From a virus (taxonomy: Duplodnaviria; Heunggongvirae; Uroviricota; Caudoviricetes), in IMG/VR virus record IMGVR_UViG_3300011337_000358: a DNA stretch of 64,000 bases. One strand, given 5' to 3'. Made by a program: the position numbers and the translations under genes. This document shows positions 45,301-62,465 of the stretch, in pieces. The stretch's first letter is position 1. Each line of letters begins with the position of its first letter. Below the pieces are notes generated by a model. The model made no database searches. It had not been told where the DNA came from and saw only the letters and a program-made list of their open reading frames with translations.

Positions 45301-45334
45301 AGAGTCTTATTCAGTCAAACAACAGGAGTTAAAA

Positions 45335-45538: not shown

Positions 45539-45547
45539 GGAGTAATC

Positions 45548-46709: not shown

Positions 46710-46830
46710 ATTAATTATTGGTTTTATTCTTGGTATTGTTGTATCAACGGTTGGCTTTAGTGGCATCGCTAGAATGGCTGATAAAGGCGTAGACAAGGTT
46801 AAAGAAGTAACCATCGAACAAGCAAAGTGA
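46702..46830 (+). CDS. Small single-TM membrane peptide (42 aa)
   Basis: 'MSKLIIGFILGIVVSTVGFSGIA'. Confidence 0.3.
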   Translation: MSKLIIGFILGIVVSTVGFSGIARMADKGVDKVKEVTIEQAK

Positions 46831-46859
46831 AATTTAAACGTAAACAGGTGGAGGATAAA

Positions 46860-47282
46860 ATGGGACTAGATATGTATGCTTATGTTGCCAGCAGAAAAGG
46901 TCAGTATGATGAATTCCATGAAAAGGCTGAATGGGATGAGACTATAAAAGATTTTACCTCTCCTATCAGTAAGCCATTGGAGATTGCTTATTGGCGTAAG
47001 CATCCTAACTTGCATGGTTGGATGGAACAACTATGGGAACGCAAAGGCAAACCCGGTGCAGGCCCTAAAGAAATATTCAATGGCATTGAATTGGAACTGA
47101 CATGGGATGATTTGGATGAGCTTGAACGAGCTATTCTCCGTGGTCAACTCCCGGATACTCAAGGTTTCTTTTTTGGTAAACCAGCAGATAATCGTTATTA
47201 TGAACAAGACCTAGAGTTTGTAGACAACGCTAAGGCGGAAGTGTTTTTGGGATTGAAAGTATTTTACAACAGTAGTTGGTAA
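46860..47282 (+). CDS. Hypothetical protein
   Basis: RBS GGTGGAGG 7 nt upstream of the ATG at 46860. Confidence 0.5.
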   Translation: MGLDMYAYVASRKGQYDEFHEKAEWDETIKDFTSPISKPLEIAYWRKHPNLHGWMEQLWERKGKPGAGPKEIFNGIELELTWDDLDELERAILRGQLPDTQGFFFGKPADNRYYEQDLEFVDNAKAEVFLGLKVFYNSSW

Positions 47283-47385
47283 TGTATATTACAAATAAAT
47301 ATCATTCAATTAAGTTGCCATATAGTGAAGATTTATTAGAATGGCTGATTGAAACATATCCTAAATCAGAATATAGAGTAGTAAA

Positions 47386-47724
47386 ATGAACGAAAATATT
47401 AAAGCAGGTGGAGACATTCACGCAGGTGATGGTGGTTACTCTATTGGCACCAAAGAAAAATATGATGAATTTGTGAAGAATAGGAATCGTATGAACGACC
47501 GAATTCGACAACTTATAGAGCAAGCTACGGATACTATAGAAATTGTTAATCCAGATACTGGAATCACTCATTATCGTGAGTTTTTTGATAAGGAAAAATT
47601 TGCCGAGTTGATTGTGTGGGAATGTATGGAACAGGTTTGGTATAGTCGTGAAGATAGTATCAACGGCAATGTTTCCGAAGTTATCAAAGACAGGATTAAG
47701 AAACATTTCGGAGTTGAAGAATGA
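47386..47724 (+). CDS. Small protein of the MNERIRQ family (alternative start at 47491 'MNDRIRQL' matches the paralogs)
   Basis: 'MNDRIRQLIEQ…FAELIVWECMEQ…KKHFGVEE'. Confidence 0.45.
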   Translation: MNENIKAGGDIHAGDGGYSIGTKEKYDEFVKNRNRMNDRIRQLIEQATDTIEIVNPDTGITHYREFFDKEKFAELIVWECMEQVWYSREDSINGNVSEVIKDRIKKHFGVEE

Positions 47725-48116
47725 ACTTAACAAAATACAGTAAAAACAAAATGTTGCAAACATTTGCACGTTGGGAAGTTCCCAAAGAGTTTGTTGAACC
47801 TTTCTATAACTATCTAGTCTGGGGATTTAGGCCAGGTAGTTGTTTTGAAGCAATACTGGCTAATGATTTTGCCAAGGCAATCTCACGTAGTCATCCTAGT
47901 AATACTATAGAAGCGTACAAAGCCTTGGTAGGTTGGATTGACAGCACAGTACCGAAAGTAGCACGTGGCAGTCATAAACAGATTCTGCTTTGGTCTAGTA
48001 TTGATGAAGAACAACGTAGAAGTATTTTAGAAGAACATCGCTTGATCTTCACCAGCAAGGAAGAAGTTATGTTGATTCTAAAAGATGAACGTATAGTTGA
48101 ACCACACTTATATTAA
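47721..48116 (+). CDS. Hypothetical protein
   Basis: ORF. Confidence 0.5.
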   Translation: MNLTKYSKNKMLQTFARWEVPKEFVEPFYNYLVWGFRPGSCFEAILANDFAKAISRSHPSNTIEAYKALVGWIDSTVPKVARGSHKQILLWSSIDEEQRRSILEEHRLIFTSKEEVMLILKDERIVEPHLY

Positions 48117-48156
48117 GGTAACATAATCACTAACTAAATATGCTACTAGGTGTAGT

Positions 48157-48390
48157 ATGTTCCACAAATTGTTTAAAGATGTAATTATAATAATATTATC
48201 AATATTAGCAATATACTTTTGGTTGGGAAATGAAACAGAATATTATGAATATGATAACTCCGATGATGTTACCATTGAATATAAATGTAGTGTAATTAAA
48301 GAATACCAACATGTTCCAGCCGAAGTTCTTAAGGAATGTAGGAAACGGAAAAACGTACCCGAAGATATTGACGATAAAACAGCAGTGTGA
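48157..48390 (+). CDS. Hypothetical small membrane protein
   Basis: N-terminal TM segment. Confidence 0.4.
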   Translation: MFHKLFKDVIIIILSILAIYFWLGNETEYYEYDNSDDVTIEYKCSVIKEYQHVPAEVLKECRKRKNVPEDIDDKTAV

Positions 48391-48396
48391 TATAAT
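48368..48396 (+). promoter_or_regulatory. Promoter TTGACG-17-TATAAT (extended TGTGATATAAT) for the ligase
   Basis: Hexamers. Confidence 0.55.
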
Positions 48397-48425
48397 ATAA
48401 CATATTATTAACTTAAGGAATTTTC

Positions 48426-49763
48426 ATGTCAGCATCGTGGATTCGTAAACTAAATGAATCAGACAGCCGCCTTCACAAGGAAGACGTAATCAAACAAGCA
48501 TTAGAGGCAAGTGTCCTTGGTAGCACAAATGCTATTAATTTCCTCTCATTCACTAAAGCCTGTTATAACCCGTATGTAACATTTGGTGTTCGTCAAATAC
48601 CAGAACTGGTAGGGATCACTAACGCAGAAAATCCCTGGGAAGAATTTAATGAGTTGATGTTACAACTTAGTCAACGTAGATTGACTGGTCATGCCGCACG
48701 TGATGCTATTCAAAGTATGGCTGAACGTTTTGATAGTGACGAATGGAATACATTCTTAGCACCTGTATTGCGTAGAGACTTACGTGCAGGCATTAGCGAC
48801 AAAACAATCAATAAAATTTGTAAGAAAACAGATTATGAAATTCCAATCTTTGGTTGTCAATTAGCGACCAACAGTGAAGGTCGTCCTGAGATGAAAGGCA
48901 TCAAACGTCTTGAACCTAAGTTAGACGGTGTTCGCATGTTGATGATGGTCATCCCAAGCGATTTTGGTGATGTGACTATTATCTGTTTTAGTCGCAATGG
49001 CAAACAGTTTGATAACTTCATTGACATTGAAAAACAAGTGCGTGATAATTGGGTCAAGATGGTTCGCAAGGCCGCAACGTCAAACTTGAGTATGGGATTT
49101 GTACTTGATGGTGAAGTGATTGGTAATAGTTTCCAAGAACTAATGCGACAAGCCCGCCGCAAGACTGATGTACGAGCAGAAGATAGTGTCTATAATGTGT
49201 TTGACATTTTACCTCTAGATGCTTTCCGTGAAGGTCATTGGAATGCTCAACTTGAAAAGCGCATCAAAATCTTAGATGACATGCGCCCGATCATTGATAC
49301 TATGCCTAATGTCGAATTGCTTCCGCACATCATGGTTGACCTTGATACGGCCGCAGGTAAGGATCAACTTGAACGCTATGCCAAAGATAATGTGAACGCA
49401 GGGTTTGAGGGCATTATGATTAAAGAATTAGAAGCACCATATATCTGTAAGCGTAGTACAGATTGGATGAAATGGAAACCTACGATTACAGTAGACTTGG
49501 AGGTAGTAGGTGTTGAAGAAGGAACTGGTAGAAATTTGGGAAGACTTGGAGCACTTGTTTGTCATGGAGTTGACGACGGGAAAGAAATTACAGTCAATGT
49601 GGGTAGTGGCTTTAGTGATACTGATAGAGATGACTATTGGACTAACCGTAATTTGGTCATTGGTCGTACTGCTGAAGTCCTGTGTGATGTGATTACACAG
49701 AACCAAGATGGAACATACAGTTTACGTTTTCCTCGATTTGTTAGATTTAGGGATGACAAATGA
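48426..49763 (+). CDS. ATP-dependent DNA ligase, T4 gp30-like
   Basis: Motif I 'LEPKLDGVRMLM' (KxDG). 'LTGHAARDAI' and 'VLRRDLRAGISDKT' parallel T4 ligase 'LTGNAAIEEL' and 'VMMRDLECGASVS'. Promoter TTGACG-17-TATAAT at 48368-48396. Confidence 0.85.
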   Translation: MSASWIRKLNESDSRLHKEDVIKQALEASVLGSTNAINFLSFTKACYNPYVTFGVRQIPELVGITNAENPWEEFNELMLQLSQRRLTGHAARDAIQSMAERFDSDEWNTFLAPVLRRDLRAGISDKTINKICKKTDYEIPIFGCQLATNSEGRPEMKGIKRLEPKLDGVRMLMMVIPSDFGDVTIICFSRNGKQFDNFIDIEKQVRDNWVKMVRKAATSNLSMGFVLDGEVIGNSFQELMRQARRKTDVRAEDSVYNVFDILPLDAFREGHWNAQLEKRIKILDDMRPIIDTMPNVELLPHIMVDLDTAAGKDQLERYAKDNVNAGFEGIMIKELEAPYICKRSTDWMKWKPTITVDLEVVGVEEGTGRNLGRLGALVCHGVDDGKEITVNVGSGFSDTDRDDYWTNRNLVIGRTAEVLCDVITQNQDGTYSLRFPRFVRFRDDK

Positions 49764-49936
49764 TTAAAGTAGTATTTGCATTCATTGTTATTTTTGCACT
49801 ATTCTTTTTGGGCATCAAAACTATCAGAAATATGTCCGGTAAAGATGCATTGGCATTGACAAAAATAGTAGGTTATAGTATACTATGTTCACTACTGACG
49901 ATTGCGATATTAATTTCAATCGTTGTTATTTTTTAA
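49760..49936 (+). CDS. Small two-TM membrane protein (58 aa)
   Basis: 'MIKVVFAFIVIFALFFLGI…ILCSLLTIAILISIVVIF'. Confidence 0.35.
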   Translation: MIKVVFAFIVIFALFFLGIKTIRNMSGKDALALTKIVGYSILCSLLTIAILISIVVIF

Positions 49937-49946
49937 GGACTATAAT

Positions 49947-50033
49947 ATGTTTCCTGACTTTCTTATTAGACCTTTGTATTTTATACTTGGGTTTGTTTTT
50001 TGTTTTTTTCTTTTTGTAAAAGGTATTATCTAA
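49947..50033 (+). CDS. Tiny hydrophobic peptide (28 aa)
   Basis: 'MFPDFLIRPLYFILGFVFCFFLFVKGII'. Confidence 0.2.
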   Translation: MFPDFLIRPLYFILGFVFCFFLFVKGII

Positions 50034-50034
50034 A

Positions 50035-50832
50035 ATGATTCGCTCTATTAAAATTGGTTTTGTTCTCACCGCAGTTGCACTGGTTAGTGCATGTACTCGC
50101 ATTGAGACTGGTGAGGTTGGTGTACGTGTTGGTTTTGATAAACAAGTGCAAAGTGGTGAACTCTTACCCGGCTCATTTAATCAAACCTTTATTGGTGACG
50201 TTCTTACATTTCCAATCAAAGACGTTAATGTTAAACTGGATGATATGACTCCAGTTGCTAAAGATAACAGCACCATGAAAGACTTTGATGCTGTGGTTAT
50301 CTATAACATCAATCAAGCACAGGTTGCTGAATTGTACTCAACTAAGAGTCAAGCATTCCACGCTCGGCATAACGGTGATATTTACTTGATGTACAACTAT
50401 ATTGTTCAAGCCACACGTAATGCTATCTACAAAGAAGCACGTAAGTATGAAGCACTGGATATGGCAGACAATCGCCAGGCTATGGAACAGGCAATTAAAG
50501 AACAAGTTCAAAAGTCACTAGCTGATGAAAAACTTGACGGTAGTTTAATTATTGGACAGGTATTGATTCGAAATATTGTACCTGCAGATTCAGTTGTTGC
50601 TAGTGCAAATGAGTTGGTTCGTGCTAAGAATGAATTGAAACAAAAAGAAGTTGAAGTTAAGACAGCAAAGATGGAAGCTGAACGTATGCAAGCATTGAGT
50701 AATCAAGGTGCTCAAAGTATTGCTTACATGCAAGCGCAGGCCATGATGAATATTTCTGAAGGTATTAAGAACGGCAAGGTGCAGACTATTGTTGTTCCAA
50801 GTAACTTCAATGCATTGATGATGAGCAGGTAA
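50035..50832 (+). CDS. SPFH/band-7 (HflC/prohibitin-like) domain lipoprotein
   Basis: Lipobox 'ALVSAC'. 'IETGEVGVRVGFDKQV' matches the SPFH N-terminal block. Long C-terminal coiled coil. A terminator follows. Confidence 0.65.
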   Translation: MIRSIKIGFVLTAVALVSACTRIETGEVGVRVGFDKQVQSGELLPGSFNQTFIGDVLTFPIKDVNVKLDDMTPVAKDNSTMKDFDAVVIYNINQAQVAELYSTKSQAFHARHNGDIYLMYNYIVQATRNAIYKEARKYEALDMADNRQAMEQAIKEQVQKSLADEKLDGSLIIGQVLIRNIVPADSVVASANELVRAKNELKQKEVEVKTAKMEAERMQALSNQGAQSIAYMQAQAMMNISEGIKNGKVQTIVVPSNFNALMMSR

Positions 50833-50840
50833 TAAAAATA

Positions 50841-50875
50841 GGGGAGATTCTCTCCCTTATTCCTTAATTTTTGAA
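50841..50875 (+). terminator. Rho-independent terminator after the SPFH gene
   Basis: 'GGGGAGATTCTCTCCC' hairpin followed by 'TTATTCCTTAATTTTT'. Confidence 0.6.
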
Positions 50876-50886
50876 AGGACCATATT

Positions 50887-52254
50887 ATGGTAACAATCGT
50901 TAAACATGAATGGCATCAACATGATAGACAATATGCTATTGAACTTGATGAAGCACTATTGAGTGAGATTTATCCCGACAAGGAAGAAGATGAGATTAAA
51001 GTAATACTAGATGGTATTGCTGATGGCACATATGATTATGAAGATGTTATTAATGATGCCTATGAGAATGACGTAGAGATTGAATGGGAGTTTCAGTATG
51101 ATGATTGTTGGACTGACCGCAAAGGTGGGTACGATGTTACATACGAACTAGGTGATGAAGATAGTTGGCATAGTGACCCGCCTCCACCAGAGCCTACTCA
51201 TAAGTGCACCAAATGTAAGTGGACTGGTCAGAGTTATGATGCTGAATGGGTGTGGCCCGATGAAGATGCTCCCGGCAAGCATGAGGCAAAGAAAGTCTGT
51301 CCTTACTGTGAAAGTGATGTTGAACTAACAGAAGCCGGTGTCATAGCAGAAAAAGAAAGTGCTGAACGTACAGCACGATGGGCTAAAGAAGCCAGTGATG
51401 CTGAGGAAGAAGTTCCTTGTTTCAGTTGTGGTGCAATGCACAAAGAAAGTGAACTACCTGAAATCAAAGAGAGTGGTTACTACTGTCCTGATTGCCATGA
51501 AGGTTGGGTTATGATGGAAGATCGGCCGACAGATGAAGAACCGGTTGATGAGGTTGAATTGGAACGAGCATTAGAAGAACTCAAAGCAGAGTTTGAAACA
51601 TTGACTGCGGATGATGATTCATTAAAAGAAAGTTATCCTGAAGATACATATACAATTCGTATCTGGGGTCGCACCCGTGAGATTGGTGTACATAAGATTA
51701 AGAAACAACAATACGACCATTGGAGTAGTGAAGAACACGAAGATGATTTGAGTGATGCTCTTAATGAGAACTATGACTATGATGAGAATGGTACTCCCAA
51801 AGCGGCAAGATTTGATTCTGCTTATTACGAGTACCAAGATAAGATTTCGTTCTGGGGTTTTGACCAAGATGATACACACATGACTATTGAAAATAGTGAA
51901 GGTGAAACAATATATGATGGTGATTTGGAATCATTCTTTGGCGAAGCACATGGTGAAGAAGATAGTCTATATGATACTACCGAAGAACAAGAAGAACTAT
52001 ATCCAGAATATCTTGGTAAAGGTTACTGGTTGATGTGGACACAAGGTGGTAAAGGATCTTGTATTCAAACTACTATTGAGGGTGTGTTTGAACCTAAGAA
52101 ACTTAAAGCACTTAACTGGGATATTCAGGGCACAAGTGTAGTTACACGATTAGTATATGACGGTGAAGAATTAAGTGATGATGGTATGGACAGTGAACAT
52201 GACAACTGGCGTGGTCAGTGGTCACAGTTTGATGTATATCATAATACAAAATGA
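50887..52254 (+). CDS. Acidic protein with two zinc ribbons, 'WEF.DD' family member 3
   Basis: 'VEIEWEFQYDDCW'; 'CTKCKW…CPYCESD'; 'CFSCGAMH…CPDCHEG'. Confidence 0.55.
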   Translation: MVTIVKHEWHQHDRQYAIELDEALLSEIYPDKEEDEIKVILDGIADGTYDYEDVINDAYENDVEIEWEFQYDDCWTDRKGGYDVTYELGDEDSWHSDPPPPEPTHKCTKCKWTGQSYDAEWVWPDEDAPGKHEAKKVCPYCESDVELTEAGVIAEKESAERTARWAKEASDAEEEVPCFSCGAMHKESELPEIKESGYYCPDCHEGWVMMEDRPTDEEPVDEVELERALEELKAEFETLTADDDSLKESYPEDTYTIRIWGRTREIGVHKIKKQQYDHWSSEEHEDDLSDALNENYDYDENGTPKAARFDSAYYEYQDKISFWGFDQDDTHMTIENSEGETIYDGDLESFFGEAHGEEDSLYDTTEEQEELYPEYLGKGYWLMWTQGGKGSCIQTTIEGVFEPKKLKALNWDIQGTSVVTRLVYDGEELSDDGMDSEHDNWRGQWSQFDVYHNTK

Positions 52255-52472
52255 CACCAGAACAATTAATACCCGGATTAAGCTATACGTTTGAAGATGG
52301 TAATAAGATTGAAATCATTCAAGTAAGAATGGTTGATGAACAAAGAGGTGGCCCATCAGTCACTTACTTTACTCATCAAGGTCGTGGCATACCTCAAAAG
52401 TTAATTATGCCTATGGAACCCTTCCTTGAATTGTATGGCCATCTATTCGAAGATAATCCACCCATAGAATAG
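52251..52472 (+). CDS. Hypothetical small protein
   Basis: ORF. Confidence 0.45.
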   Translation: MTPEQLIPGLSYTFEDGNKIEIIQVRMVDEQRGGPSVTYFTHQGRGIPQKLIMPMEPFLELYGHLFEDNPPIE

Positions 52473-52485
52473 ACTAAATACATAG

Positions 52486-54096
52486 ATGTTAAATAGAATA
52501 TTAAATTTTTCCAACCTCACATTATTAGTAGCACTGTCACTTAGTTCAGTAGCTGCCTGGTATAGTATCATAGGTCTAACTGCTATCTTTGCAGGTGCAG
52601 TTATTCCTGTTATCATCATGGGTAGTATCCTAGAAATAGGTAAGATTACTACTACAGTATGGCTACGTAAATACTGGCATCGTGCTGGATGGCTACTAAA
52701 ACTATACTTGGTTCCCGCCGTTATAGCATTGGCATTATTAACCAGCATGGGTATCTTTGGCTTCTTAAGCAAAGCACACATGGATCAAGGTATGATATCA
52801 GGTGACGTAATAGCTAAGATTGCAATATATGATGAAAAAATCAAAACCGAAAAAGAGAATATTGAAGCAAACCGTAAGGCACTTAAACAGATGGATGAGG
52901 GAGTGGACCAAGTACTGGGCCGCTCAACAACAGAAACGGGTGCAGAAAGAGCTGTGGCTATGCGAAAGTCCCAGCAGAAAGAGCGTACTCGACTTCAAAA
53001 TGAAATACTACAGTCGCAAAAGTCTATCGCGGAACTTAACGATGCACGTGCGCCTATTGCCGCCGAGGTACGTAAAGTCGAAGCAGAAGTTGGGCCAATT
53101 AAGTATATCGCCGCATTAATATACGGTGACAATACTGATGCGAACATGTTGGAAGCCGCAGTTCGTTGGGTTATTATTTTACTTGTTATTGTATTTGATC
53201 CATTAGCTATTGCACTTGTACTTGCGGCAAATGCAAGCAGAGAATGGGACGATGAAGAACCTAATAAAGAAGAACCGGCATATGAACCAGATGACGGACC
53301 ATTAACAGAAAATCAAATTGAACAAATAAAACAAAATGTTAATGATCTTGAGGTAACAACAGAAGAGGAAGAAGCGTTTAAATCGCTTGAACCAAAAGGT
53401 AGTGACCCTACAAATAACTGTTATTTGTGTGGTACTGAGTTAATCAATGCTCCCGGTATAGGTCCATTCTGTCCCAATAAGTCATGTAAGGTGATGGATA
53501 ATACAATGGGGGCAAACTGGGAAGTTATTAAACCGGAACCTGAAAAATCTTTATTAGAACAACATCCTTACTTAAATAAAGGATTTGACCATTTCAAAAA
53601 TCTAAAGCCAATGGTTACGTCAACTAATAAGATAGTTCCAGAAATAACGGAACTTACAGTTGACTCAACTAAGCCAATTGATGTTGTAACTGAGGGTGTT
53701 ACTATTCCCAAACCGTTTAAAGAATTAGAAGGTGGTTATGTAACATTTGAAGGTAAACACATGCACCGTGATGTGTTAATGGGTAATCATCCCGAAGTAT
53801 TTAAATTAGTAGCAGATTCCGCAAGATCAGCTAATACTAGTTTTGGAACTGAATTCCCAAAAATAGCAGAAAAAGGTGATTCTTTTGTTCGGGTAGATGT
53901 ATTGCCAAACCGTGTGTATAAGTTTGATGGAACTAGATGGATTATCGTAAATAAGGATGTATCCAAAAGTTATTTACATGACCAAGAATATATAAAATAT
54001 CTCATAACTAAAATAGACAATGGTGAGTATGATATTGAATTATTGAGTGATTCCGAAAAACAGCAAATTGAAGAACACTTGACCAAAAAGTCTTGA
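52486..54096 (+). CDS. Membrane protein (N-terminal multi-TM) with coiled coil and zinc ribbon
   Basis: Hydrophobic N-terminal 110 aa plus 'IILLVIVFDPLAIALVLAA'; 'CYLCG…CPNKSC'. Confidence 0.55.
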   Translation: MLNRILNFSNLTLLVALSLSSVAAWYSIIGLTAIFAGAVIPVIIMGSILEIGKITTTVWLRKYWHRAGWLLKLYLVPAVIALALLTSMGIFGFLSKAHMDQGMISGDVIAKIAIYDEKIKTEKENIEANRKALKQMDEGVDQVLGRSTTETGAERAVAMRKSQQKERTRLQNEILQSQKSIAELNDARAPIAAEVRKVEAEVGPIKYIAALIYGDNTDANMLEAAVRWVIILLVIVFDPLAIALVLAANASREWDDEEPNKEEPAYEPDDGPLTENQIEQIKQNVNDLEVTTEEEEAFKSLEPKGSDPTNNCYLCGTELINAPGIGPFCPNKSCKVMDNTMGANWEVIKPEPEKSLLEQHPYLNKGFDHFKNLKPMVTSTNKIVPEITELTVDSTKPIDVVTEGVTIPKPFKELEGGYVTFEGKHMHRDVLMGNHPEVFKLVADSARSANTSFGTEFPKIAEKGDSFVRVDVLPNRVYKFDGTRWIIVNKDVSKSYLHDQEYIKYLITKIDNGEYDIELLSDSEKQQIEEHLTKKS

Positions 54097-54121
54097 ACAA
54101 AACTCCAGTTTAGTATATAAT
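54093..54121 (+). promoter_or_regulatory. Promoter TTGAAC-17-TATAAT for the lipoprotein
   Basis: Hexamers. Confidence 0.5.
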
Positions 54122-54151
54122 AATAACATTATTAACTAACTGGAGTTTCCA

Positions 54152-54784
54152 ATGAAAAAACTAATTGTTTGTGCAACTGTACTAGCCTTAACTGGTTGCG
54201 GCAATTTTGGTAAAAAATCTGATGAGCATGAACCAATTCGCAATCAGAAACTTTCAACCTCTTTTAAAAATGATACAATCCGTATTGAAACAGATTGTGT
54301 TTGGTATAAGCCATGGAAAAGTGATTGTGATGTGACTTCAATCGAAGCTACCGCAACTGCTAGTGCTAACGGCAATACTGATTCAAATCGCCGTACTGCG
54401 TTGATTCGTGCAGGTGATCGTGCTAGGGCTAGTGTTCGTCATTTTATTCAAGAAGACTTGAATAGTACCCGAACTCAGTCTACACTTGCCAAGAATGTAG
54501 AGAAAGCAAGTGATAGAATGAAATCATCTACTGTCAATGGCGAGACGGTAGCAATTAGTGATACTGATGCTGAAAAGGATTCAAGCCATAGTATTCGCAC
54601 TAATAGCAATGATACTGCATATCAATTACAAGAATCTATTCGTGTTAATGCAAGTGGCATTTTGCGTGGATTCAGGGTAGTAAAACAAGAAGTTATTGGT
54701 GGGCAAGAAGTTAGTGTAACGATTCGCTGGGATAAAGATTCCGAAAATACTGCTAATCTTTTGCGTAAAAAATTCGGTAATTAA
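54152..54784 (+). CDS. Lipoprotein (210 aa)
   Basis: Lipobox 'LALTGCG'. Promoter TTGAAC-17-TATAAT at 54093-54121. Confidence 0.6.
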   Translation: MKKLIVCATVLALTGCGNFGKKSDEHEPIRNQKLSTSFKNDTIRIETDCVWYKPWKSDCDVTSIEATATASANGNTDSNRRTALIRAGDRARASVRHFIQEDLNSTRTQSTLAKNVEKASDRMKSSTVNGETVAISDTDAEKDSSHSIRTNSNDTAYQLQESIRVNASGILRGFRVVKQEVIGGQEVSVTIRWDKDSENTANLLRKKFGN

Positions 54785-54787
54785 AAA

Positions 54788-55753
54788 ATGAGACTGCTGT
54801 TAATAGCGGTTTGTTTATTCTTTACAAATGCATTTGCTGGTGACTATACTAGAGTGGTAGGGCACGGGCCTAACATTGAGACTGCAAAAGAAAATGCATT
54901 TCGTGAAGCAATAATGATTCGTGTAGGTACCGTTGTACTTAGTGAGCGTGAATCTACTATAAACAATCTAAAACGTGATGACATTTCTGTGTACAGCGCC
55001 GGCTATGTTAATGATTACAAAATCATTTCAGTAGAAAGATATGGATCAACAGTTAAAGTAACAGTTGATGTGTTAGTTGCTGATAGTAAACTTGTCAATC
55101 AACGATTAAATTCAGGTACTACAATTAATACTATCAACGGTGATAATGCATTTACCAATTACAAAACCTTTATTGACCAAAAACTTAAAGCTGATAGATT
55201 AATCAAATCAGTCTTATCATCCTATCCCAACAATGCTTATATAGTAGAGCAATCACCTTATCAAATAGGTGTTGATTCTTTTCGCAATGCTATACTAACA
55301 GTTCAATATAAGTTAAAGTGGAACTATGATTATATCATTGCCTTTAATGAATTAATGTCATTAGTAGAAGATAGTAAGTATGGCATGCTAGAACATGCAC
55401 CTAGTAATGTCATCATTCTAGGTAAAAATCCCAAAGATTTTGTTTTAGGTGAAAAGAAGCATTATAAATTTAGTGATATCCTTTTGTTAGATAGAATTAA
55501 AGACTCAATGACATACGGGAGAGAAGTAAAGTTAAAATTGTCAATGAGTGATATTAATTTTAACAATTTAATTTCTCAATGTTTTAACGTGAACAAAACT
55601 TATTTTTCAGTTGGCAATCCTAGAAGTCTGGTGTTATACGGGAATACTAAAGAAGAAGGGGTATTGCAATTACGTATCCCAGTAGAGTATAATAACGTTA
55701 TACAACGAGCAAGCAACATACAAGTATCGGTTGTTCCATACAATCAATGTTAA
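54788..55753 (+). CDS. Secreted protein (signal peptide)
   Basis: 'MRLLLIAVCLFFTNAFA'. Confidence 0.55.
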   Translation: MRLLLIAVCLFFTNAFAGDYTRVVGHGPNIETAKENAFREAIMIRVGTVVLSERESTINNLKRDDISVYSAGYVNDYKIISVERYGSTVKVTVDVLVADSKLVNQRLNSGTTINTINGDNAFTNYKTFIDQKLKADRLIKSVLSSYPNNAYIVEQSPYQIGVDSFRNAILTVQYKLKWNYDYIIAFNELMSLVEDSKYGMLEHAPSNVIILGKNPKDFVLGEKKHYKFSDILLLDRIKDSMTYGREVKLKLSMSDINFNNLISQCFNVNKTYFSVGNPRSLVLYGNTKEEGVLQLRIPVEYNNVIQRASNIQVSVVPYNQC

Positions 55754-55789
55754 AAAATATTAGTGAAAATAAAAACGATAAATTAAAGT

Positions 55790-56995
55790 ATGACCTCTGA
55801 ATCTAAACTAAACCATTGTTCCTTTTGTGGCAATCACAAAGATAAAGTTACTAAACTTATCGTAAGCGAAGATGTTGCTATTTGTAGTGACTGTATTGAA
55901 TTATGCAACCAATTAGTTATTGATGAACTTGTAACCAGTGAATCGGCTAATGTAAAAGAAAACACCATTAATGACCCTCATTTAATTAAAGAGTACCTGG
56001 ATGAGCATGTAATTGGACAAGATTCTGCTAAAACAGTACTGAGTGTGGCTATTGCTAATCATTATAAACGCATTACCTATCCACCAAAAGACTTAGAAAT
56101 TTCTAAAGGTAATGTCTTAATTATTGGGCCTACTGGATCAGGTAAAACACTATTAGCTAAAACAGTAGCAAAATACTTAAATGTACCTTTCATTGTTGCT
56201 GATGCTACTAGTTTAACTGAAGCAGGGTATGTGGGTGATGATGTTGAATCAATGATTAGTATGCTTGTTAATGCCGCAGGTGGAGATCCTAAACTAGCAG
56301 AACGTGGTATTGTGTTTGTTGATGAAATTGATAAGATTGCACGTAAGAGTGAGGGTACTAGTATTACCCGTGACGTATCAGGTGAGGGTGTTCAACAGGC
56401 GTTATTGAAATTAGTTGAAGGCACCGTGTGTCGTATTCCAGCTAGTGGCGGACGCAAACATCCCGGTGGTGATATGCTAGAAATTAATACAAAAAATATA
56501 TTGTTCATTGCAGGTGGGGCATTTGTTGGATTAAAAGAAATTATTTCTAATCGTAAAAACGGTACCAGTATTGGATTTGGGGCAAATATTAAAGAAAATA
56601 AAAAAGAAGGTGAACTAAGCCAAGTAACTCCTGACGATTTGACTAAGTTTGGTATGATTCCTGAGTTTATCGGCCGCTTTACTACTACAGTTAGCATTGG
56701 TGAATTGGGGAAAGATGAGTTAAAACAAATATTAACTTCCGTTAAAAACAATTACATCAAGCAATATCAATATCTATTAAGTATTGATGGTATTGAATTG
56801 AACTTTGAAGATGGTGCTTTGAATCAAATTGTAGATAATTGCTTGAAATTAAAGACCGGAGCACGTGGATTACATACTGAAATTGAACGTGTATTGATGC
56901 CACATATGTTTAATGTCAACAAGTATAAGGAAAATAACGTAAAAGTGATAAATATAAGTCAGGACGCAGTTATAGAACCAAAAATTATGTTATGA
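55790..56995 (+). CDS. clpX: ClpX ATP-dependent protease unfoldase subunit
   Basis: N-terminal C4 zinc-binding domain 'CSFCGN…CSDCIELC'. Walker A '[11 protein letters not shown]'. Length 401 aa. Confidence 0.9.
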
Positions 56996-57213
56996 GTATT
57001 AAAGGAAGACGAGTTATTGTACAAGACGGGAATTTTGAAAAAGCATTACGCAAATTCAAAAAGAAGATATCCGACCTGGATTTATTACAAGAAGTTCGTG
57101 ACCGTCAACAATATGTTAAACCTACTGTTAAACGCAAACTAGCAAAAAGCCAAGCTAAACGTAGATGGCAAAAATATCTACGTGACCAAAGTCTACCCAA
57201 GAAACTTTTTTAA
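56992..57213 (+). CDS. rpsU: Ribosomal protein bS21 (RpsU) homolog
   Basis: '[41 protein letters not shown]' matches E. coli S21 '[41 protein letters not shown]'. Length 73 aa. Confidence 0.85.
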
Positions 57214-57261
57214 CCTAAATATTATAATTTATTGCGTATTAGTAGTATAATAAATACATAC

Positions 57262-57313
57262 GTAGATGCCGATAATCGGGTCTACATATAGTCATCTTGC
57301 TTAATAAAGGAGA
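57262..57313 (+). promoter_or_regulatory. Candidate ROSE-like RNA thermometer in the Hsp20 5'UTR
   Basis: Nested hairpin 'GTAGATGCCGATAATCGGGTCTAC' followed by 'UUGCU' (57297-57301) positioned to pair with SD 'AGGAG' (57308-57312), with the G·G mismatch typical of ROSE elements. Confidence 0.4.
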
Positions 57314-57319
57314 AAACAA

Positions 57320-57772
57320 ATGACAAAAACTTTAACCCTTCGTTCCCTCGACATTCCGTCGCTTCATAAATTTGGTATCGGTTTCGATTCAATGTTTGAT
57401 GAATTGCACAGAATTCATTCTCAACAATCCAACACAAACTATCCCCCATATAACATAGTCCAAATTAATGAGGACGAGTATATGATTAGTGTAGCTGTAG
57501 CTGGATTTGGTCTTGATAATCTTTCAATAACAAAAGACAAAAACTTTTTGATTATTGAAGGGAAGGAATATCAATCTGATAGCGAAGAAATCATACCAAA
57601 CTATCTACACAAAGGTATTAGCAACAGAGACTTCCGTCGTGAATTCAAACTTGCAGACCACGTAGAGATAGTGGATGCAAATTTAGAATTGGGTATCCTC
57701 AACGTTCATTTAAAACGTGAAGTTCCTGAAGAACAAAAGCCCAAGTCTATTGCAATTACTTATACTAAGTGA
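57320..57772 (+). CDS. Small heat-shock protein Hsp20/alpha-crystallin family (IbpA-like)
   Basis: 'FRREFKLADHVEIVDANLELGILNVHLKRE' is the alpha-crystallin domain C-terminal block. Confidence 0.85.
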   Translation: MTKTLTLRSLDIPSLHKFGIGFDSMFDELHRIHSQQSNTNYPPYNIVQINEDEYMISVAVAGFGLDNLSITKDKNFLIIEGKEYQSDSEEIIPNYLHKGISNRDFRREFKLADHVEIVDANLELGILNVHLKREVPEEQKPKSIAITYTK

Positions 57773-57795
57773 TATAATAGAATTTCAATAAATAA

Positions 57796-57817
57796 GTGTG
57801 CGGGGTAACTCGCACAC
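57796..57817 (+). promoter_or_regulatory. Stem-loop (GTGTGCG-N8-CGCACAC) in the clpS leader, after a TGATATAAT extended -10
   Basis: 7-bp perfect inverted repeat. Confidence 0.35.
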
Positions 57818-57832
57818 AACTTAAATAAAATT

Positions 57833-58138
57833 ATGTCCAAAACTGATACTAAAGTAAAAATCAAACCTAATCTCGCTTTAAGAGAGCCGCCCTTGTTTAA
57901 AATCATTTATTTCAATGATGATGTTACAAGTCTGGAATTTGTTGTGGGAAGTTTAATTGATTATTTTAATTATAATCAGGATACTGCTACTTCTATTAGT
58001 GAAAATATTCATCATCAAGGAAGTGCTGTGGTTGCAGTACTACCTTATGAAATTGCAGAGCAAAAAGGCATCGAAGTTACACTAGAAGCTAGAAGCCAAG
58101 GTTACCCGCTTCAAGTTAAGATTGAAGCTGAAGTTTAA
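57833..58138 (+). CDS. clpS: ClpS adaptor protein
   Basis: 'PLFKIIYFNDDVTSLEFVVGSL' matches E. coli ClpS '[23 protein letters not shown]'. Confidence 0.85.
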   Translation: MSKTDTKVKIKPNLALREPPLFKIIYFNDDVTSLEFVVGSLIDYFNYNQDTATSISENIHHQGSAVVAVLPYEIAEQKGIEVTLEARSQGYPLQVKIEAEV

Positions 58139-58836
58139 ATAGTTATTTCAATTCGTTTAGCCCAATAAGGGTTTCGATTGTAATATGAATTGTTGATGTA
58201 GTTGATACCATTAATAGTGGTATCAACTACTTTTCCATATGTGCCATAGACCCAATTAGTTACTTTACTTTCGGTATCATATGTTAAAGTAATTCCCAAA
58301 CTTAGTTGATTTTTTACTGATTCCGGTTGTTCTTTAAAATACAAATCTACACTAGGCACAGAGTTAGATACTAATATAATTTTTTTAACATCTAAGTGTT
58401 TTTGTAATCGTTCAACCGTATTTTTAAGATATAGTATATCTTCATTCCTGTGTTGTTCAATTAATGCTTCTGTCGTTGCATCAGATGGTATAGTATTTCC
58501 GTACCATCCATTTGCTCCAGCTAATGCAATGCCATCAACAATTACCACATGATGGTGCATCACTGCAACATTTTTTATGGTTTGACATAGTTTATGAATT
58601 TCGTTGGTTCGTGCTTCTATATCAGACGTTTGATGATATTCAGTAGAACCTAAGGTATAGAAAATACCCTGATAAAACCTAGACAGATGCAATAGAGTTT
58701 GCCTAATTGTGCGTAAATCACTACTAATATTACCTGCAATAATGAGGTATAAACTAGTTGCTTTGCCTTCCCAATTAAAACTACTTTCGGGTGACAAATT
58801 TAAGTCACTGATTACGTCAAACCCTATTGTTGTCAT
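58135..58836 (-). CDS. Hypothetical protein, possibly a degenerate calcineurin-like metallophosphoesterase
   Basis: 'VISDLNL' (DxH-like with H→N), 'IIAGN', 'MHHHVVIVDG'. Weak. Confidence 0.35.
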   Translation of the reverse strand: MTTIGFDVISDLNLSPESSFNWEGKATSLYLIIAGNISSDLRTIRQTLLHLSRFYQGIFYTLGSTEYHQTSDIEARTNEIHKLCQTIKNVAVMHHHVVIVDGIALAGANGWYGNTIPSDATTEALIEQHRNEDILYLKNTVERLQKHLDVKKIILVSNSVPSVDLYFKEQPESVKNQLSLGITLTYDTESKVTNWVYGTYGKVVDTTINGINYINNSYYNRNPYWAKRIEITI

Positions 58837-58839
58837 CAG

Positions 58840-59094
58840 TTATTTTGCTACGCTAATTTTTGGCTTTCTTGGTGCCTTTGGCTTAGCAGGTGCTTTAGCT
58901 TTTGGGGCAGCCGGTCCTCGGGCGGCGGCTGTGCGAGCCGGAGCTTTTGGCTTAGCTGGTGCTTTTTCAGCAACCGGGGCAGGTGTTTCCACTTTTGCCG
59001 GTTCAACCGCTTTTGGTGCTTCTACTTTGTACGGGGCGGGCGCCTCGACTGGTTTAGCTGAAAAGCCAAATAAACGCTTGATAAAGTCTATCAT
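58840..59094 (-). CDS. Small basic Ala/Lys/Pro-rich histone-H1-tail-like protein
   Basis: 'APKAVEPAKVETPAPVAEKAPAKPKAPARTAAARGPAAPKAKAPAKPKAPRKPK'. Confidence 0.5.
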   Translation of the reverse strand: MIDFIKRLFGFSAKPVEAPAPYKVEAPKAVEPAKVETPAPVAEKAPAKPKAPARTAAARGPAAPKAKAPAKPKAPRKPKISVAK

Positions 59095-59175
59095 TTCTAT
59101 CTCCTAAACATATATTTACTCGGGTTTGAACCATAAACATTTTTTCCTTAAGTATATGAAGTTTCCAAAAGTTAA

Positions 59176-59685
59176 GTGTATCATAAATACATGATGTTCA
59201 GAAAAGCCAATCTTGCCGAACTTATGCGTGAGGAGTTGCCTCCGATAGCATACCAAAAACGCCTTTGTTACAGGACCGACCGTGACGAAGTTGTAATGCT
59301 TTATCGTCTAATTAATAAGACAATTTTTGACAACAAATTAAAGATGCCAGAGATTGAAGTTATGGCACGATGCCGTAAATATTGGGGAATGTGCTATGGG
59401 TCATACGAAACACCCACAAAAAACAAAAGCTCCTGCAAGATTAGAATGATGGACAAATGGTACTGTCGGCAATGGCTTATTACAGTATTAGCACACGAAA
59501 TGTGCCATCAATATCAATGGGATGTGCAGGGTATAGAACGTAGAAAGATCGGAAAAGATCCTATTATGAGTCATGGTCCTAGCTTCTTTGTATTCAGAGA
59601 TAAATTAAAGAAGAATGGAATCTCATTAAAAAGCGCACATGGCCGCAAACGTTGGTTCAAACATCAAAACTTCTTTAAGTGCTAA
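59176..59685 (+). CDS. SprT-like zinc metalloprotease domain protein
   Basis: 'VLAHEMCHQYQW' matches the SprT 'HEMCH' signature. Confidence 0.6.
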   Translation: MYHKYMMFRKANLAELMREELPPIAYQKRLCYRTDRDEVVMLYRLINKTIFDNKLKMPEIEVMARCRKYWGMCYGSYETPTKNKSSCKIRMMDKWYCRQWLITVLAHEMCHQYQWDVQGIERRKIGKDPIMSHGPSFFVFRDKLKKNGISLKSAHGRKRWFKHQNFFKC

Positions 59686-59689
59686 CATT

Positions 59690-59697
59690 GATAAATA
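59690..59697 (+). promoter_or_regulatory. T4 late-promoter-like motif 'GATAAATA' ~20 nt upstream of the capsid-targeted protein gene
   Basis: 7/8 match to TATAAATA. Same motif in front of the minus-strand capsid-targeted operon. Confidence 0.4.
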
Positions 59698-59715
59698 CTT
59701 CATAGGTATATTATT

Positions 59716-61140
59716 ATGAGAGCACTAGAATTTTTAACTGAAGCCCCACTTACACCAGGAAACTTATTTGACCCTCGTCACTTAAACTGGAGACCACAAA
59801 ACTTTCTTAAAAAGTTAGAAGCAGGGACACCGTTCGTAGATAAATCCGGTAATAAGTATTACCCGGAAGATGGAGAATTTGAAAGAATTACTCCTATCGT
59901 TACTCAAATATTACAACAGTTAGAAAAACAACCTAACGCCCCTCTACCAAGTATCAGCATCAATATGAAAGATGTTGGTCCTGTTTCATTGAGCAAATTA
60001 GAAAAAGCAGATTTGCAAACAGCAGGTGGACAGTTTACTAGTGACGTTAATGTACAACCATTAGGTATTGGTATTGCGGCTGATCCTATCAATAAACCCG
60101 GCACAAAGCCTGCTGATAAAATAACAATGACAACTGATGAAGAAATTCAGGCTGCATTGGACAAACATCAAGAAATTAAAGCTGGTCAATTGTATGAGGT
60201 TATCATGTCTAATAAGACACTTGACCAAGCAGGAGAGTTGGGTAAAGCAATCAAGCAAGCCGCAACTGAAATGAATAATAATCAAGTACCTATTATTAAA
60301 CAGTATGCGGAATCAGTACAAAAGAAAATCGCAATTGATGCAGGTGAATATTTAGGTGTATTGGCAATGGTCAAAGATGTTGCTGACTTTCCCAAAAAAG
60401 CCGCATTCTTAAACTTTCTACGTGCAAATGATTTTGAAAATTTATCAATTATTTTTCCCGGAGAACAGAACTCTCCATTAGGTGACAGTTACGGTGTACA
60501 AAATGCAGAAACTGGTCATAATATTGTTATCAGTAGCAAAGGTGGTAAGGGTAGTACGGCATCTGGCGCCGCCCCTAGCCTAGGAGGTTTAAAGACTTCT
60601 GTTGACAAACGTGCATCGAAGATTAGAAAAGGTAACGGACTCGATTTTATTAATCATATTATTCAAGTTAGTCCAACTTCAGCGCAAGGCTTTGCAGGTA
60701 TTAATTGGATTGCAAATAATTATCCAGAATCAGTGCCAGACAAATATAAAAATTTAGTTCCATTCTACAGCGAAGATGTGAAACAAATATTGAAAAACAT
60801 TCGCACAAAGGGCGCAGAACCTATTCCAGAAAAGTTCTTATCATTAATCAGTGCTCCTAGTATTCAAGCAAGTAAAGGTACTGATGGTGGTAAGTTAGTA
60901 TATGTTGTAACTAAAGATTTGGTGAGTGCCATCAATGCAGGTATCATTAAAAACTTTAGAACTACTGTGTTAGAACTATTAGATGAGAACTTTGTTCAAA
61001 TCTTCTCACGCATTATTGGTGGCAAACTTGTTACCAAAGTATTGTGGCCAGGTAAAGTTGATGGCAATGTATCGTTGCATACTAAGATTTCTCCGGGAGA
61101 TCCAGGTGGTGCAGGATTAAGTTTCAAGGTTACCGATTAA
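59716..61140 (+). CDS. Internal-protein-like protein (474 aa) with capsid-targeting N-terminus
   Basis: N-terminus 'MRALEFLTE|A', paralogous to the minus-strand block N-termini. Upstream 'GATAAATA' at 59690-59697 is late-promoter-like. Confidence 0.55.
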   Translation: MRALEFLTEAPLTPGNLFDPRHLNWRPQNFLKKLEAGTPFVDKSGNKYYPEDGEFERITPIVTQILQQLEKQPNAPLPSISINMKDVGPVSLSKLEKADLQTAGGQFTSDVNVQPLGIGIAADPINKPGTKPADKITMTTDEEIQAALDKHQEIKAGQLYEVIMSNKTLDQAGELGKAIKQAATEMNNNQVPIIKQYAESVQKKIAIDAGEYLGVLAMVKDVADFPKKAAFLNFLRANDFENLSIIFPGEQNSPLGDSYGVQNAETGHNIVISSKGGKGSTASGAAPSLGGLKTSVDKRASKIRKGNGLDFINHIIQVSPTSAQGFAGINWIANNYPESVPDKYKNLVPFYSEDVKQILKNIRTKGAEPIPEKFLSLISAPSIQASKGTDGGKLVYVVTKDLVSAINAGIIKNFRTTVLELLDENFVQIFSRIIGGKLVTKVLWPGKVDGNVSLHTKISPGDPGGAGLSFKVTD

Positions 61141-61152
61141 CACTAAAATCAA

Positions 61153-61181
61153 TTGACTTTGACATAAACTTCCGTTATAAT
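61153..61181 (+). promoter_or_regulatory. Promoter TTGACT-17-TATAAT for clpP
   Basis: Hexamers. Confidence 0.6.
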
Positions 61182-61209
61182 AGTGGAAACATTTATATAA
61201 AGGAAGTTT

Positions 61210-61797
61210 ATGTCTCTAGTCCCAATGGTTCTTGAACAAACAGCAAAAGGTGAGCGTAGCTATGATATCTACAGCCGCCTATTACGTGACCGTGTTATTT
61301 TACTTGAAGGTGAAGTGCATGACCAAATGGCAAATCTTATCGTTGCCCAATTGCTTTACTTAGAAAGTGAAAGCGACAAAGATATCTCAATGTACATCAA
61401 TAGCCCAGGTGGTAGTGTGACTGCTGGTATGGCAATATATGATTGTATGCAATTTGTTAAACCTGACATTCACACTATTGTAATGGGTCAAGCCTGTTCA
61501 ATGGGGTCATTACTTGCACAAGCAGGCAGTGCAGGCAAACGATTTATGTTGCCCAATGCACGACATATGATTCACCAACCAAGTGGTGGCGCACGTGGTA
61601 TGCAAAGTGACATTGAAATCAGTTACAAAGAAATCACATACTTGAAAAAACGTCTAACTGAAATTTATGTTAAGCATAACTCAGCCGGCAAATCATACGA
61701 AGATTTTGAACGTGACATGGATCGTGATAAGTTTATGAGTGCTGAGGAAGCTTTGGCCTACGGACTTATTGACAAGATTGTTGAAAAGCGCCAGTGA
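61210..61797 (+). CDS. clpP: ClpP protease proteolytic subunit
   Basis: '[17 protein letters not shown]', catalytic Ser '[10 protein letters not shown]', His 'MIHQPSGG'. Promoter TTGACT-17-TATAAT at 61153-61181. Confidence 0.9.
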
Positions 61798-62465
61798 TTA
61801 AATTTATCCCCGTACCTGTAAATGAGCATGATGCAATATTGGGTAGTAACTTTAATCAATTATTTGCCCAAGAAATGCAGTCATACTATTCACCTTTCGT
61901 TGCCAAGAACAGAGATATTCAGGTAGCAAAAGAGACATGGGAGTATGCTGTTGCTGATAGCATACTTAACTCTGAGTGGTGCGGGGCAGGAAAAAACGTA
62001 GTAGATGTTAAAGCACCTATAGCAGACCTAGATGTTAAGGGTATTAGTATCGGGGTGATTACTGACAGCCAAACGACAGAAGCCAGTTTCTTACAGAATA
62101 ACAAACAAGAAAACGATGGTTTTAGTAAATTGTTTGAGAACAAAGATTTTTTAGCATTAAAGCAAATGTTTGTCGATCCAATGGATGACAAAATAAAGGG
62201 CACTAACAATTTACATTTGCTTAGTATCATCAGAGAAAAATCCACTAGGAAAGTATATTATTGTTTACTTAAGGTGGAATCCAGCACAATATCCGATATT
62301 GATTTTCTATCACAAATGACTATCGATGGAAAACGTAGCGTGACATTACCTATGATCGATCCTACACACGGAAAAACATACATCTACATAGCCAAACGAA
62401 GACTGGAAATTCGGTTGAACGGGGAGGGCCTGACACCGTTCTTGGTCTATTCCCATAGCTACTGA
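61794..62465 (+). CDS. Hypothetical protein
   Basis: ORF coupled to clpP. Confidence 0.5.

Follow-up and report, generated by a model that had tools for sequence, protein, structure and literature searches.

Among ribosomal proteins found in uncultivated viruses, bS21 has a share of 88%, and aquatic samples supplied 90% of these cases (PMC6375957). In the ribosome it lies on the 30S platform near the 3′ terminus of 16S rRNA, and there it is needed for the binding of natural mRNAs; it is loosely bound and exchangeable, and the ribosomal proteins that viruses carry are the exchangeable ones (PMC6375957). Mass spectrometry identified the bS21 of Pelagibacter phage HTVC008M in the 70S ribosomes of E. 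coli cells that expressed it (Mizuno et al. 2019, PMC6375957). Here we describe a phage bS21 (rpsU-like) gene at positions 56992..57213 (+ strand) of a 64,000-nucleotide (nt) stretch of IMG/VR virus record IMGVR_UViG_3300011337_000358 (Caudoviricetes), the whole of which is referred to below as the window. The gene is virus-encoded, is under strong purifying selection, overlaps the end of a phage clpX gene within a conserved block of chaperone and protease genes, and specifies a C-terminal tail of betaproteobacterial type.

Several described systems resemble this locus in part. As with the window's protein, HTVC008M bS21 is a short, basic PF01165 protein of a large, lytic-type aquatic phage and is under purifying selection (PMC6375957). 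Its gene is followed by a hypothetical gene and then by one for a heat-shock protein, which places bS21 two genes from the latter. The two proteins are ∼41% identical over residues 8-57 (42.7 bits). HTVC008M differs in its alpha-type C-terminus (...KKLREREQ, without K-L-F/Y), in being a 147-kb Kyanoviridae phage and in the lack of coupling to clpX. In Vibrio phage 2.275.O, genes for IF-3 and RpsU3 are followed by one for an L7/L12/ClpS-like protein.

The Bacteroidetes phages of Chen et al. 2022 (PMC9723584) are, like the clade to which the window belongs, jumbo myovirus-like phages of freshwater lakes with genomes of ∼300 kb, and in both groups the context and the C-terminus of bS21 are conserved. 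That study also counted, without analysis, the neighbours of 900 published phage bS21 genes, which included Hsp20 (127) and Clp proteases of two families (50 and 47); a neighbourhood of Hsp20 and Clp genes around phage bS21 has therefore already been published. In the phages of Chen et al., however, bS21 is Flavobacteriia-like, late-expressed and encoded on the reverse strand in a structural module of TerL, portal, protease and major capsid protein genes (PMC9723584), whereas the window's bS21 gene runs in the same direction as clpX, to which it is coupled, and the chaperone/protease block that holds it lies near replication genes. The window clade has neither of the features that define Bacteroidetes-phage bS21 clades a-e, namely position in that module and relatedness to Flavobacteriia.

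Results

The bS21 gene is an ATG-to-TAA open reading frame (ORF) of 73 amino acids (aa), and its product is strongly basic, with 23 K/R against 7 D/E. In Pfam it matched PF01165 (Ribosomal_S21) at 57.6 bits (E 1e-15; gathering score 27), with residues 8-58 covering profile positions 2-53 of 55, and the NCBIfam equivalog TIGR00030 was matched over positions 2-58 of 58 at 58.4 bits against a cut-off of 28.95. PHROG 21469 (phrog_21469), 'ribosomal protein S21', was matched with an E of 4e-12. When all PDB chains were searched with HMMER, each of the 33 matches was a bS21 or a mitochondrial bS21m; the best were proteobacterial (E 2.5e-8 to 6.6e-8), the top one covering query residues 12-66. Solved bacterial bS21 chains measure 51-88 aa and bS21m chains 85-87 aa. 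The HMMER alignment to E. coli-type bS21 paired ALRRFKR with ALRKFKK and RKRAKA with RKLAKS, and a third E. coli block, EVRRRE.YEKPT, was aligned in the same PDB-chain alignments. An earlier sequence-only reading of this DNA had described a basic 73-aa protein with blocks alignable to E. coli S21 and had proposed a PF01165 search, with no S21 hidden Markov model hit as the result that would count against it. The reading frame and the alignments to PDB chains bear out that description, and the search gave the 57.6-bit match. Profile and alignment evidence thus shows the ORF to be a bS21 homologue. Structural comparison, in which N-terminal helices ahead of a long C-terminal helix would be looked for, gave no support: an AlphaFold2 model of the protein, with helices at residues 15-28, 31-38 and 46-67, was of moderate confidence (predicted local distance difference test, pLDDT, 69.8; predicted template-modelling score, pTM, 0.33), and Foldseek found no match to it in the PDB. 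Such an outcome is expected, since bS21 folds on rRNA, and for a protein of this sort the model is uninformative.

ClpX, ClpP, ClpS, an IbpA-like Hsp20 and bS21, all found in this region, are typical cellular genes, and the window might on that account be a piece of bacterial DNA carrying the cell's own rpsU. The remainder of the window makes this reading extremely improbable. Coding sequence occupies 94% of it, and 85 of ∼100 genes lie on one strand. The 902-aa product of an ORF spanning 8635..11343 is a family-B DNA polymerase of T4 type (phrog_262, E 3e-197) whose best relatives are those of jumbo phages, the closest being Sinorhizobium AP-J-162/Phosso and Agrobacterium phage Atu_ph07 (45.6-49.2% identity; Phosso 49.2%, Atu_ph07 45.6%), with Klebsiella RaK2/K64-1 and Escherichia 121Q at ∼44%. 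Phage-family (PHROG) matches were also obtained for an ATP-dependent DNA ligase, nucleases and a QueE-like enzyme. Over the whole 64 kb no tRNA was found and no Rfam family, rRNA included, matched at its gathering threshold; a Pfam sweep of 52 further window ORFs gave no cellular core genes, and no other ribosomal protein gene was present among the ORFs scanned. The tsaD-rpsU arrangement, the cellular rpsU context of Klebsiella and Legionella, does not surround the window's bS21 gene.

The distribution of relatives points the same way. An identical bS21 protein is present on 50 metagenomic contigs, one of them from IMG sample 3300009164, taken from Lake Simoncouche, a freshwater lake (PMC10960955), and over 100 relatives were located on viral contigs of IMG/VR, several of them 211-364 kb long, that carry the same gene block. 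No nucleotide match to window 52000..62000 was found among 50,697 phage records. A search of species-representative genomes with the bS21 protein found no close relative and only two weak partial matches, in a 490-kb 'Bacteroides sp.' metagenome-assembled genome (MAG) and in a Planctomycetia MAG, neither of which names a donor. Taken together these findings show that bS21 is encoded by a virus, as the sequence-only reading had it; the polymerase, ligase, nucleases, gene density, strand bias and IMG/VR relatives all agree. Membership of a clade of large (∼300-360 kb) freshwater myovirus-like jumbo phages is the best explanation of these data. The first of the weak matches (L008; CP063811.1, 'MAG: Bacteroides sp. 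isolate cpbc052018 chromosome', 489,825 bp) has an S21-like product with 51% identity across residues 9-49, and its size points to a huge phage, or else a reduced symbiont, deposited under the name Bacteroides.

The jumbo phages with the most similar polymerases also bear on bS21. Atu_ph07-like jumbo phages, whose hosts are Alphaproteobacteria, are reported to carry S21, L7/L12, IF-3, ClpX, Clp proteins and Hsp20 (PMC11242549). Their S21 genes were not among the matches listed by tblastn with the window's bS21 at E <= 10 (60 of 63 records listed), and the window's protein is therefore of a different type or much diverged.

Selection on the gene was measured from 67 distinct bS21 nucleotide versions. 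Median synonymous divergence (dS) was 1.6 and median nonsynonymous divergence (dN) 0.15; the median pairwise dN/dS, over the 973 pairs with dS > 0.1, was 0.084 and the maximum 0.26. The gene is thus under strong purifying selection. Among 21 cluster representatives 40 of the 73 residues are invariant, and these include almost the entire tail (A55, R57-R58-W59, K61, L63-R64-D65-Q66-S67-L68-P69 and K71 in that region).

Gene order is conserved to a similar degree. Across ∼90 related loci, with bS21 proteins 72-100% identical to the window's, the order p536, p210, p321, clpX, bS21, hsp20, clpS, p233 (opposite strand), sprT, clpP is near universal; SprT was undetected in some loci, a few are without p210/p321, and end genes are missing on truncated contigs. 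Three further single-protein scans of viral contigs, seeded with distant representatives, gave 127 viral loci in which bS21 is only 42-65% identical to the window's. A p536 homologue lies upstream in 121 of these, hsp20 lies downstream in 82 and clpS in 79; clpX is directly upstream in 26, and in the other 101 no clpX was detected adjoining bS21. Since the block is kept at such low bS21 identity, bS21 is an old, vertically inherited member of it across a wide radiation of freshwater phages, and not a recent pick-up. We consider it probable that the gene provides a functional, vertically inherited phage copy of the 30S protein that enters the host subunit.

Some contigs of the family showed further features. 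On L010/L011 (ENA contig KRAE22-1 scaffold_63, 71.5 kb) the Band_7...clpX-bS21-hsp20-clpS...clpP block occurs twice, 13.6 kb apart, which reflects a true tandem duplication or else a fault of assembly. Two bS21 blocks (L028 and L062) also occur on IMGVR_UViG_3300027749_002876 (524,565 bp), ∼400 kb apart and in opposite orientation, with bS21 copies 81% and 78% identical to the window's protein; this record probably joins two related phages, by chimerism or concatenation, and is not one 525-kb genome. Contig L001, whose proteins are 100% identical to the window's in the shared part, continues past the window's 3′ end, and ∼860 nt beyond that end it holds a 129-aa ORF (15538..15924 of L001) with an L7/L12 C-terminal domain (PF00542, 26.2 bits; cut-off 25.9). 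The phage probably encodes a second ribosome-related protein, of L7/L12 type, ∼8 kb downstream of bS21.

The gene immediately 5′ of bS21, at 55790..56995 (+), encodes a 401-aa phage ClpX with a zinc finger and an AAA+ unfoldase domain (NF003745, 524 bits against 359; also matched by Pfam zf-C4_ClpX and AAA_2), and every locus of the close family has it directly upstream of bS21. The TGA stop of clpX and the ATG start of bS21 overlap as ATGA at 56992..56995 (+), and no Shine-Dalgarno (SD) sequence precedes bS21. The overlap and the lack of an SD of its own imply translational coupling of bS21 to clpX. The same 4-nt overlap is found in 85 of 88 related loci, the remaining three having longer overlaps. 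The clpX leader itself (55754..55789) is also without an SD, and an A-rich leader, AAAA(C/A)GATAAATTAA(A/T)(G/A)nATG, is kept in divergent relatives, which suggests SD-independent initiation for clpX, the gene to which bS21 is coupled.

So constant a link to clpX, together with hsp20, clpS and clpP as constant neighbours, raises the question of a role outside the ribosome, in which the S21 fold would be reused for a partner, adaptor, decoy or substrate of ClpX, or for a general RNA-binding protein. The proximity of bS21 to a heat-shock protein gene in HTVC008M and to that for an L7/L12/ClpS-like protein in Vibrio phage 2.275.O is in keeping with such a role. We regard it as very unlikely: the best-conserved part of the protein is the tail, whose E. 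coli counterpart contacts 16S rRNA, bS21 is kept in the 101 distant loci where no adjoining clpX was detected, and another phage bS21 does enter ribosomes (PMC6375957). A related arrangement, in which bS21 is no loose auxiliary gene but the translation arm of a co-evolving takeover module (p536, clpX, bS21, hsp20 with its thermometer, clpS, sprT-like and clpP) and phage ClpXP/ClpS removes host bS21 or platform factors that the co-translated phage bS21 then replaces, is unlikely as well, if slightly less so; were it true, proteolysis and re-equipment of the ribosome would be mechanistically linked.

The C-terminal tail carries most of the information on the host. In E. coli bS21 the last residues, R-L-Y, pack into h37 of 16S rRNA and stack on A1167 of the 30S head (PMC7550191). 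The tripeptide is RLY in Gammaproteobacteria and KLY in Betaproteobacteria, and other phyla are without the extension (Watson et al. 2020, PMC7550191); the tails of phage S21 proteins follow the predicted gamma- and betaproteobacterial hosts (PMC7550191). The window's protein ends in ...SLPKKLF, with a basic-Leu-aromatic tripeptide at the very C-terminus of the extension. Huge-phage S21 proteins with KLY-like tails (Al-Shayeb et al. 2020, as analysed in PMC7550191) likewise have the motif at the exact protein end, and their tail was read as an h37/A1167 contact matching beta- and gammaproteobacterial hosts (PMC7550191). Unlike these, the window clade ends mostly in K-L-F, which was found in 86 of 120 close clusters, with K-L-Y in 19 and another K-x-F/Y ending in 15.

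Cellular proteins of beta type share this tail. Those of Neisseria and Burkholderia were taken from two chromosomes found inside a plasmid collection, and they were the best named cellular matches in blastp with the window's protein (58.5 and 57.8 bits, respectively). Lower scores were obtained for a Vibrio jumbo phage (52.8), Methylophilales phage Melnitz (50.1), Rhizobium (48.9), Klebsiella (45.4), HTVC008M (42.7) and Legionella (42.0). The window's tail aligns end-to-end with ...IRSQTLPKKLY of Burkholderia stagnalis and ...LRSQQLPPKMY of Neisseria gonorrhoeae; the proteins end at the same position, share the pattern [LI]R-x-Q-x-LP-x-K-[LM]-[YF] and are 47-49% identical to the window's over residues 15-73. 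They differ at the other end, where the N-terminal strand and helix of the window's protein are nearer to the alpha or phage style (VIV.D.N.E.A.RK.KKK) and three extra residues are present, and the genomic context of the phage gene is unrelated to that of cellular rpsU. An exhaustive phmmer search covered 1.84 billion cluster representatives. Among the best 150, which were examined, canonical cellular-type bS21 (M[PT].IRVKENEPFE...) was of beta type only, one such representative containing a copy of the Neisseria protein with one substitution, and 48 of the 150 had an LPxKx[YFH] ending.

Of 500 resamplings in an identity bootstrap over all alignment columns, 414 placed a beta sequence closest among those labelled. 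Two points weigh against a betaproteobacterial host. With the last 14 columns removed, alpha was nearest in 271 of 500 and beta in 191, the N-terminal half being more alpha- or phage-like; because the signal vanishes without these columns, the beta assignment rests on the tail, whose structural role makes it the likeliest region for tuning to a host. Secondly, Okazaki et al. assigned the alphaproteobacterium LD12 as host to LBVG_1, a 318-kb freshwater phage of Lake Biwa that carries S21 and whose polymerase is 43.8% identical to that of Atu_ph07. HTVC008M bS21, which served as a pelagiphage proxy for that case and is 54% identical to its own host's protein (PMC6375957), has no such tail and was a weak match to the window's protein. 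The GC content of the window phage is 34-40%. LD12 genomes have ∼30% GC, and the phage is nearer in this respect to Ca. Methylopumilus.

Initiation signals add to this picture. An SD core of at least 5 nt precedes 32 of 100 window genes against ∼7 expected, and the hsp20 leader described below is also predicted to mask an SD, so that the host uses SD sequences. A Bacteroidetes host was considered and rejected as unlikely on this SD usage, on the different gene context and on the score of the Flavobacterium johnsoniae chain 7jil (22.5 bits, against 35-37 for proteobacterial chains). The tail, then, is shown by alignment to be of the betaproteobacterial KLY type, and the most likely host is a freshwater betaproteobacterium (Burkholderiales in the GTDB sense). 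The sequence-only reading had taken bS21 as a hint of aquatic Alpha- or Betaproteobacteria or Bacteroidetes; host information is indeed present, in the tail, with Betaproteobacteria as its best reading, Bacteroidetes are disfavoured, and Alphaproteobacteria (LD12) stay as the rival from the literature.

A cellular anchor for the comparison was sought in P0139, the nearest full-length relative without the N-terminal extension (58% identity), and was rejected because its neighbours, which encode CsgF, CsgG, FecR, an NS-type endonuclease and NifU and are closely packed in one direction, are not a cellular rpsU context. Its relatives L228-L230 form a viral-looking bS21 clade with an LPPKLY tail and the array CsgF, autotransporter, CsgG, FecR, NS-type endonuclease, bS21, NifU, IscA-like. 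A bS21 with a beta-type tail is therefore not confined to a single gene context.

Upstream of clpX lie p210 (54152..54784, +) and p321 (54788..55753, +; signal-peptide-like N-terminus), neither of a Pfam or PHROG family and both syntenic in the close family, and before them p536 (52486..54096, +), a conserved protein with weak DUF4407 and tetraspanin-like matches only and the most constant upstream partner of bS21. The best promoter-like site ahead of this run of genes, of sigma-70 type (TTGAAC-17 nt-TATAAT, with 10 of 12 consensus positions), is located at 54093..54121 (+). In an alignment with divergent relatives the flanks drift around two retained hexamers and a retained GGAG ribosome-binding site. 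We infer that p210, p321, clpX and bS21 may form one early-type transcription unit read by the host polymerase. Two points count against this: the promoter is a consensus match only, and promoter-like matches in the region are not in excess (36, against 33 in shuffles).

Downstream, hsp20 (57320..57772, +) encodes a 150-aa Hsp20/IbpA-like small heat-shock protein (PF00011, 53.8 bits; phrog_432), for which the nearest NCBIfam model is IbpA NF008013 at 123.9 bits, under its cut-off of 212. It is followed by genes for a 101-aa ClpS adaptor (57833..58138, +; PF02617, 79.8 bits) and, beyond a 233-aa ORF of no assigned family on the opposite strand, for a protein with a SprT-like metalloprotease domain (59176..59685, +; PF10263, 34.1 bits, and synteny). 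A 474-aa ORF, also of no assigned family, separates the latter from the gene for the 195-aa ClpP protease subunit (61210..61797, +; PF00574, 265 bits, and synteny), ahead of which a second promoter-like site, TTGACT-17-TATAAT, matches the consensus at 61153..61181.

The 106-nt spacer between bS21 and hsp20 (57214..57319, +) is conserved in an alignment of 39 distinct spacers. Its AT-rich TATAAT box precedes a ROSE-like element of two hairpins at 57260..57325 that extends over the hsp20 SD. Rfam ROSE_3 (RF02523) was matched over its full length (1-69 of 69) at 30 bits, under the gathering score of 43, with an E of 1e-4 in a 201-nt search, and the whole-window Rfam scan at gathering thresholds gave no hit to it or to any other family. 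Hairpin I, GUAGAUGCCGAUAAUCGGGUCUAC, is a near match to the ROSE_3 consensus, with compensatory changes in 7 of 10 pairs across relatives, and in the second predicted hairpin CUUGCUU lies opposite the SD, AAGGAG. By definition the second hairpin of a ROSE motif pairs the SD with U(U/C)GCU (PMC3669281). The hsp20 leader thus looks like an RNA thermometer of ROSE-like type, predicted to mask the hsp20 SD. The conserved AATAAATA box ahead of hsp20 was also considered as a T4-type late promoter; the motif is not repeated upstream of other window genes, and the box was left unassigned.

The spacer is the sole variable point of the block, the distance from bS21 to hsp20 ranging from ∼0.1 to ∼2.8 kb through inserted ORFs. 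It appears as an insertion hot spot, with ∼0.1 kb in the window against ∼0.75, 1.4, 2.1 or 2.8 kb in relatives; longer spacers occur in L002, L003, L036, L060-L063, L074, L077 and others, and the inserted ORFs, of 216 and 221 aa, belong to no convincing family. Positions 57243..57322 also gave a sub-threshold match to the Rfam family 'freshwater-2' (23.4 bits against 49.9), the 3′ consensus of which, UAAAGGAGAAAACAAAUG, is identical to the hsp20 ribosome-binding region. Leaders of related genes in freshwater phages may be the source of freshwater-2, an orphan metagenomic motif.

Elsewhere in the window, positions 1..50900 encode a 7-deazaguanine (queuosine-precursor) set comprising GTP cyclohydrolase I (FolE), PTPS/QueD, QueE (24824..25672) and a PP-loop QueC-like protein, as well as Fe/Mn superoxide dismutase, ferritin, a Bax1-I/YccA-like protein, UvdE, TctC and sugar-nucleotide enzymes. 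The Pfam sweep also gave phage GP88. A Band_7/SPFH protein is encoded at 50035..50832; the Bax1-I and Band_7 families include FtsH modulators, which would fit a proteostasis theme.

Discussion

The account of this gene that we consider most likely is early synthesis together with ClpX followed by a swap into the host 30S platform. Host RNA polymerase would transcribe bS21 early, from the sigma-70-like promoter ahead of p210-p321-clpX-bS21, and ribosomes that had just completed clpX would translate it. The protein would then enter the platform of the host 30S subunit, topping up or replacing host bS21, so that the pool of initiation-competent 30S subunits would be kept or raised, and initiation might be biased towards phage mRNAs. 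A published result stands against this account: in the sole functional test of a phage bS21, E. coli ribosomes were ∼5% active (PMC6375957).

The sequence-only reading had called the gene a candidate for ribosome specialisation, a fair label for what is still an inference. In its strong form, phage bS21 would replace the host protein and the resulting 30S subunits would favour phage leaders, including those without an SD such as that of clpX, over host mRNAs. Several lines of evidence agree with this. bS21 adjoins the anti-SD and the mRNA path (PMC7550191); in Francisella, bS21 paralogues are reported to control the expression of specific genes (PMC9578407), and altered SD use on loss of bS21 is reported for Flavobacterium (PMC9976891). 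The region of the N-terminal helix differs from the cellular RVKENEPFEVAMRRFKR, as Chen et al. noted likewise for their phages (PMC9723584), and 44 of 100 window genes have no SD-like match. Watson et al., however, found no relation between the type of phage S21 and the ribosome-binding-site consensus (PMC7550191). A translation bias towards phage mRNAs can therefore be put forward only tentatively; it would refine the early-synthesis and swap account and does not exclude it.

The phage gene might instead supply quantity. If bS21 were limiting or sub-stoichiometric in slow-growing oligotrophic hosts, a phage copy would activate idle 30S subunits and leave mRNA preference unchanged. The protein is exchangeable and required for the binding of natural mRNAs (PMC6375957), viral bS21 genes come from aquatic samples in 90% of cases (PMC6375957), the core and tail of the window's protein are conserved as in a normal bS21, and its apparent early expression beside chaperone and protease genes sets it among what resemble capacity boosters. 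A supply function alone leaves unexplained why the copy that was kept is so divergent, at ∼47-49% identity to the closest cellular type, and we hold it to be somewhat doubtful. The divergent N-terminal helix and the many phage genes without an SD lean towards specialisation, the canonical core and tail towards dosage.

The present analysis extends the published picture of phage bS21 and its neighbours by showing that coupling to clpX is near universal, that synteny runs deep and that the tail is of beta type, and by predicting a thermometer on the adjacent hsp20. No viral ribosomal protein is commoner than phage bS21. This clade offers a clean test case, with hundreds of natural alleles, a fixed link to phage ClpX and a near-invariant tail whose E. 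coli counterpart has a known target in the 30S head, and the likely host group, freshwater Betaproteobacteria, includes cultivable genera. While no new principle is revealed, the clade yields testable predictions on how phages may take over the ribosome.

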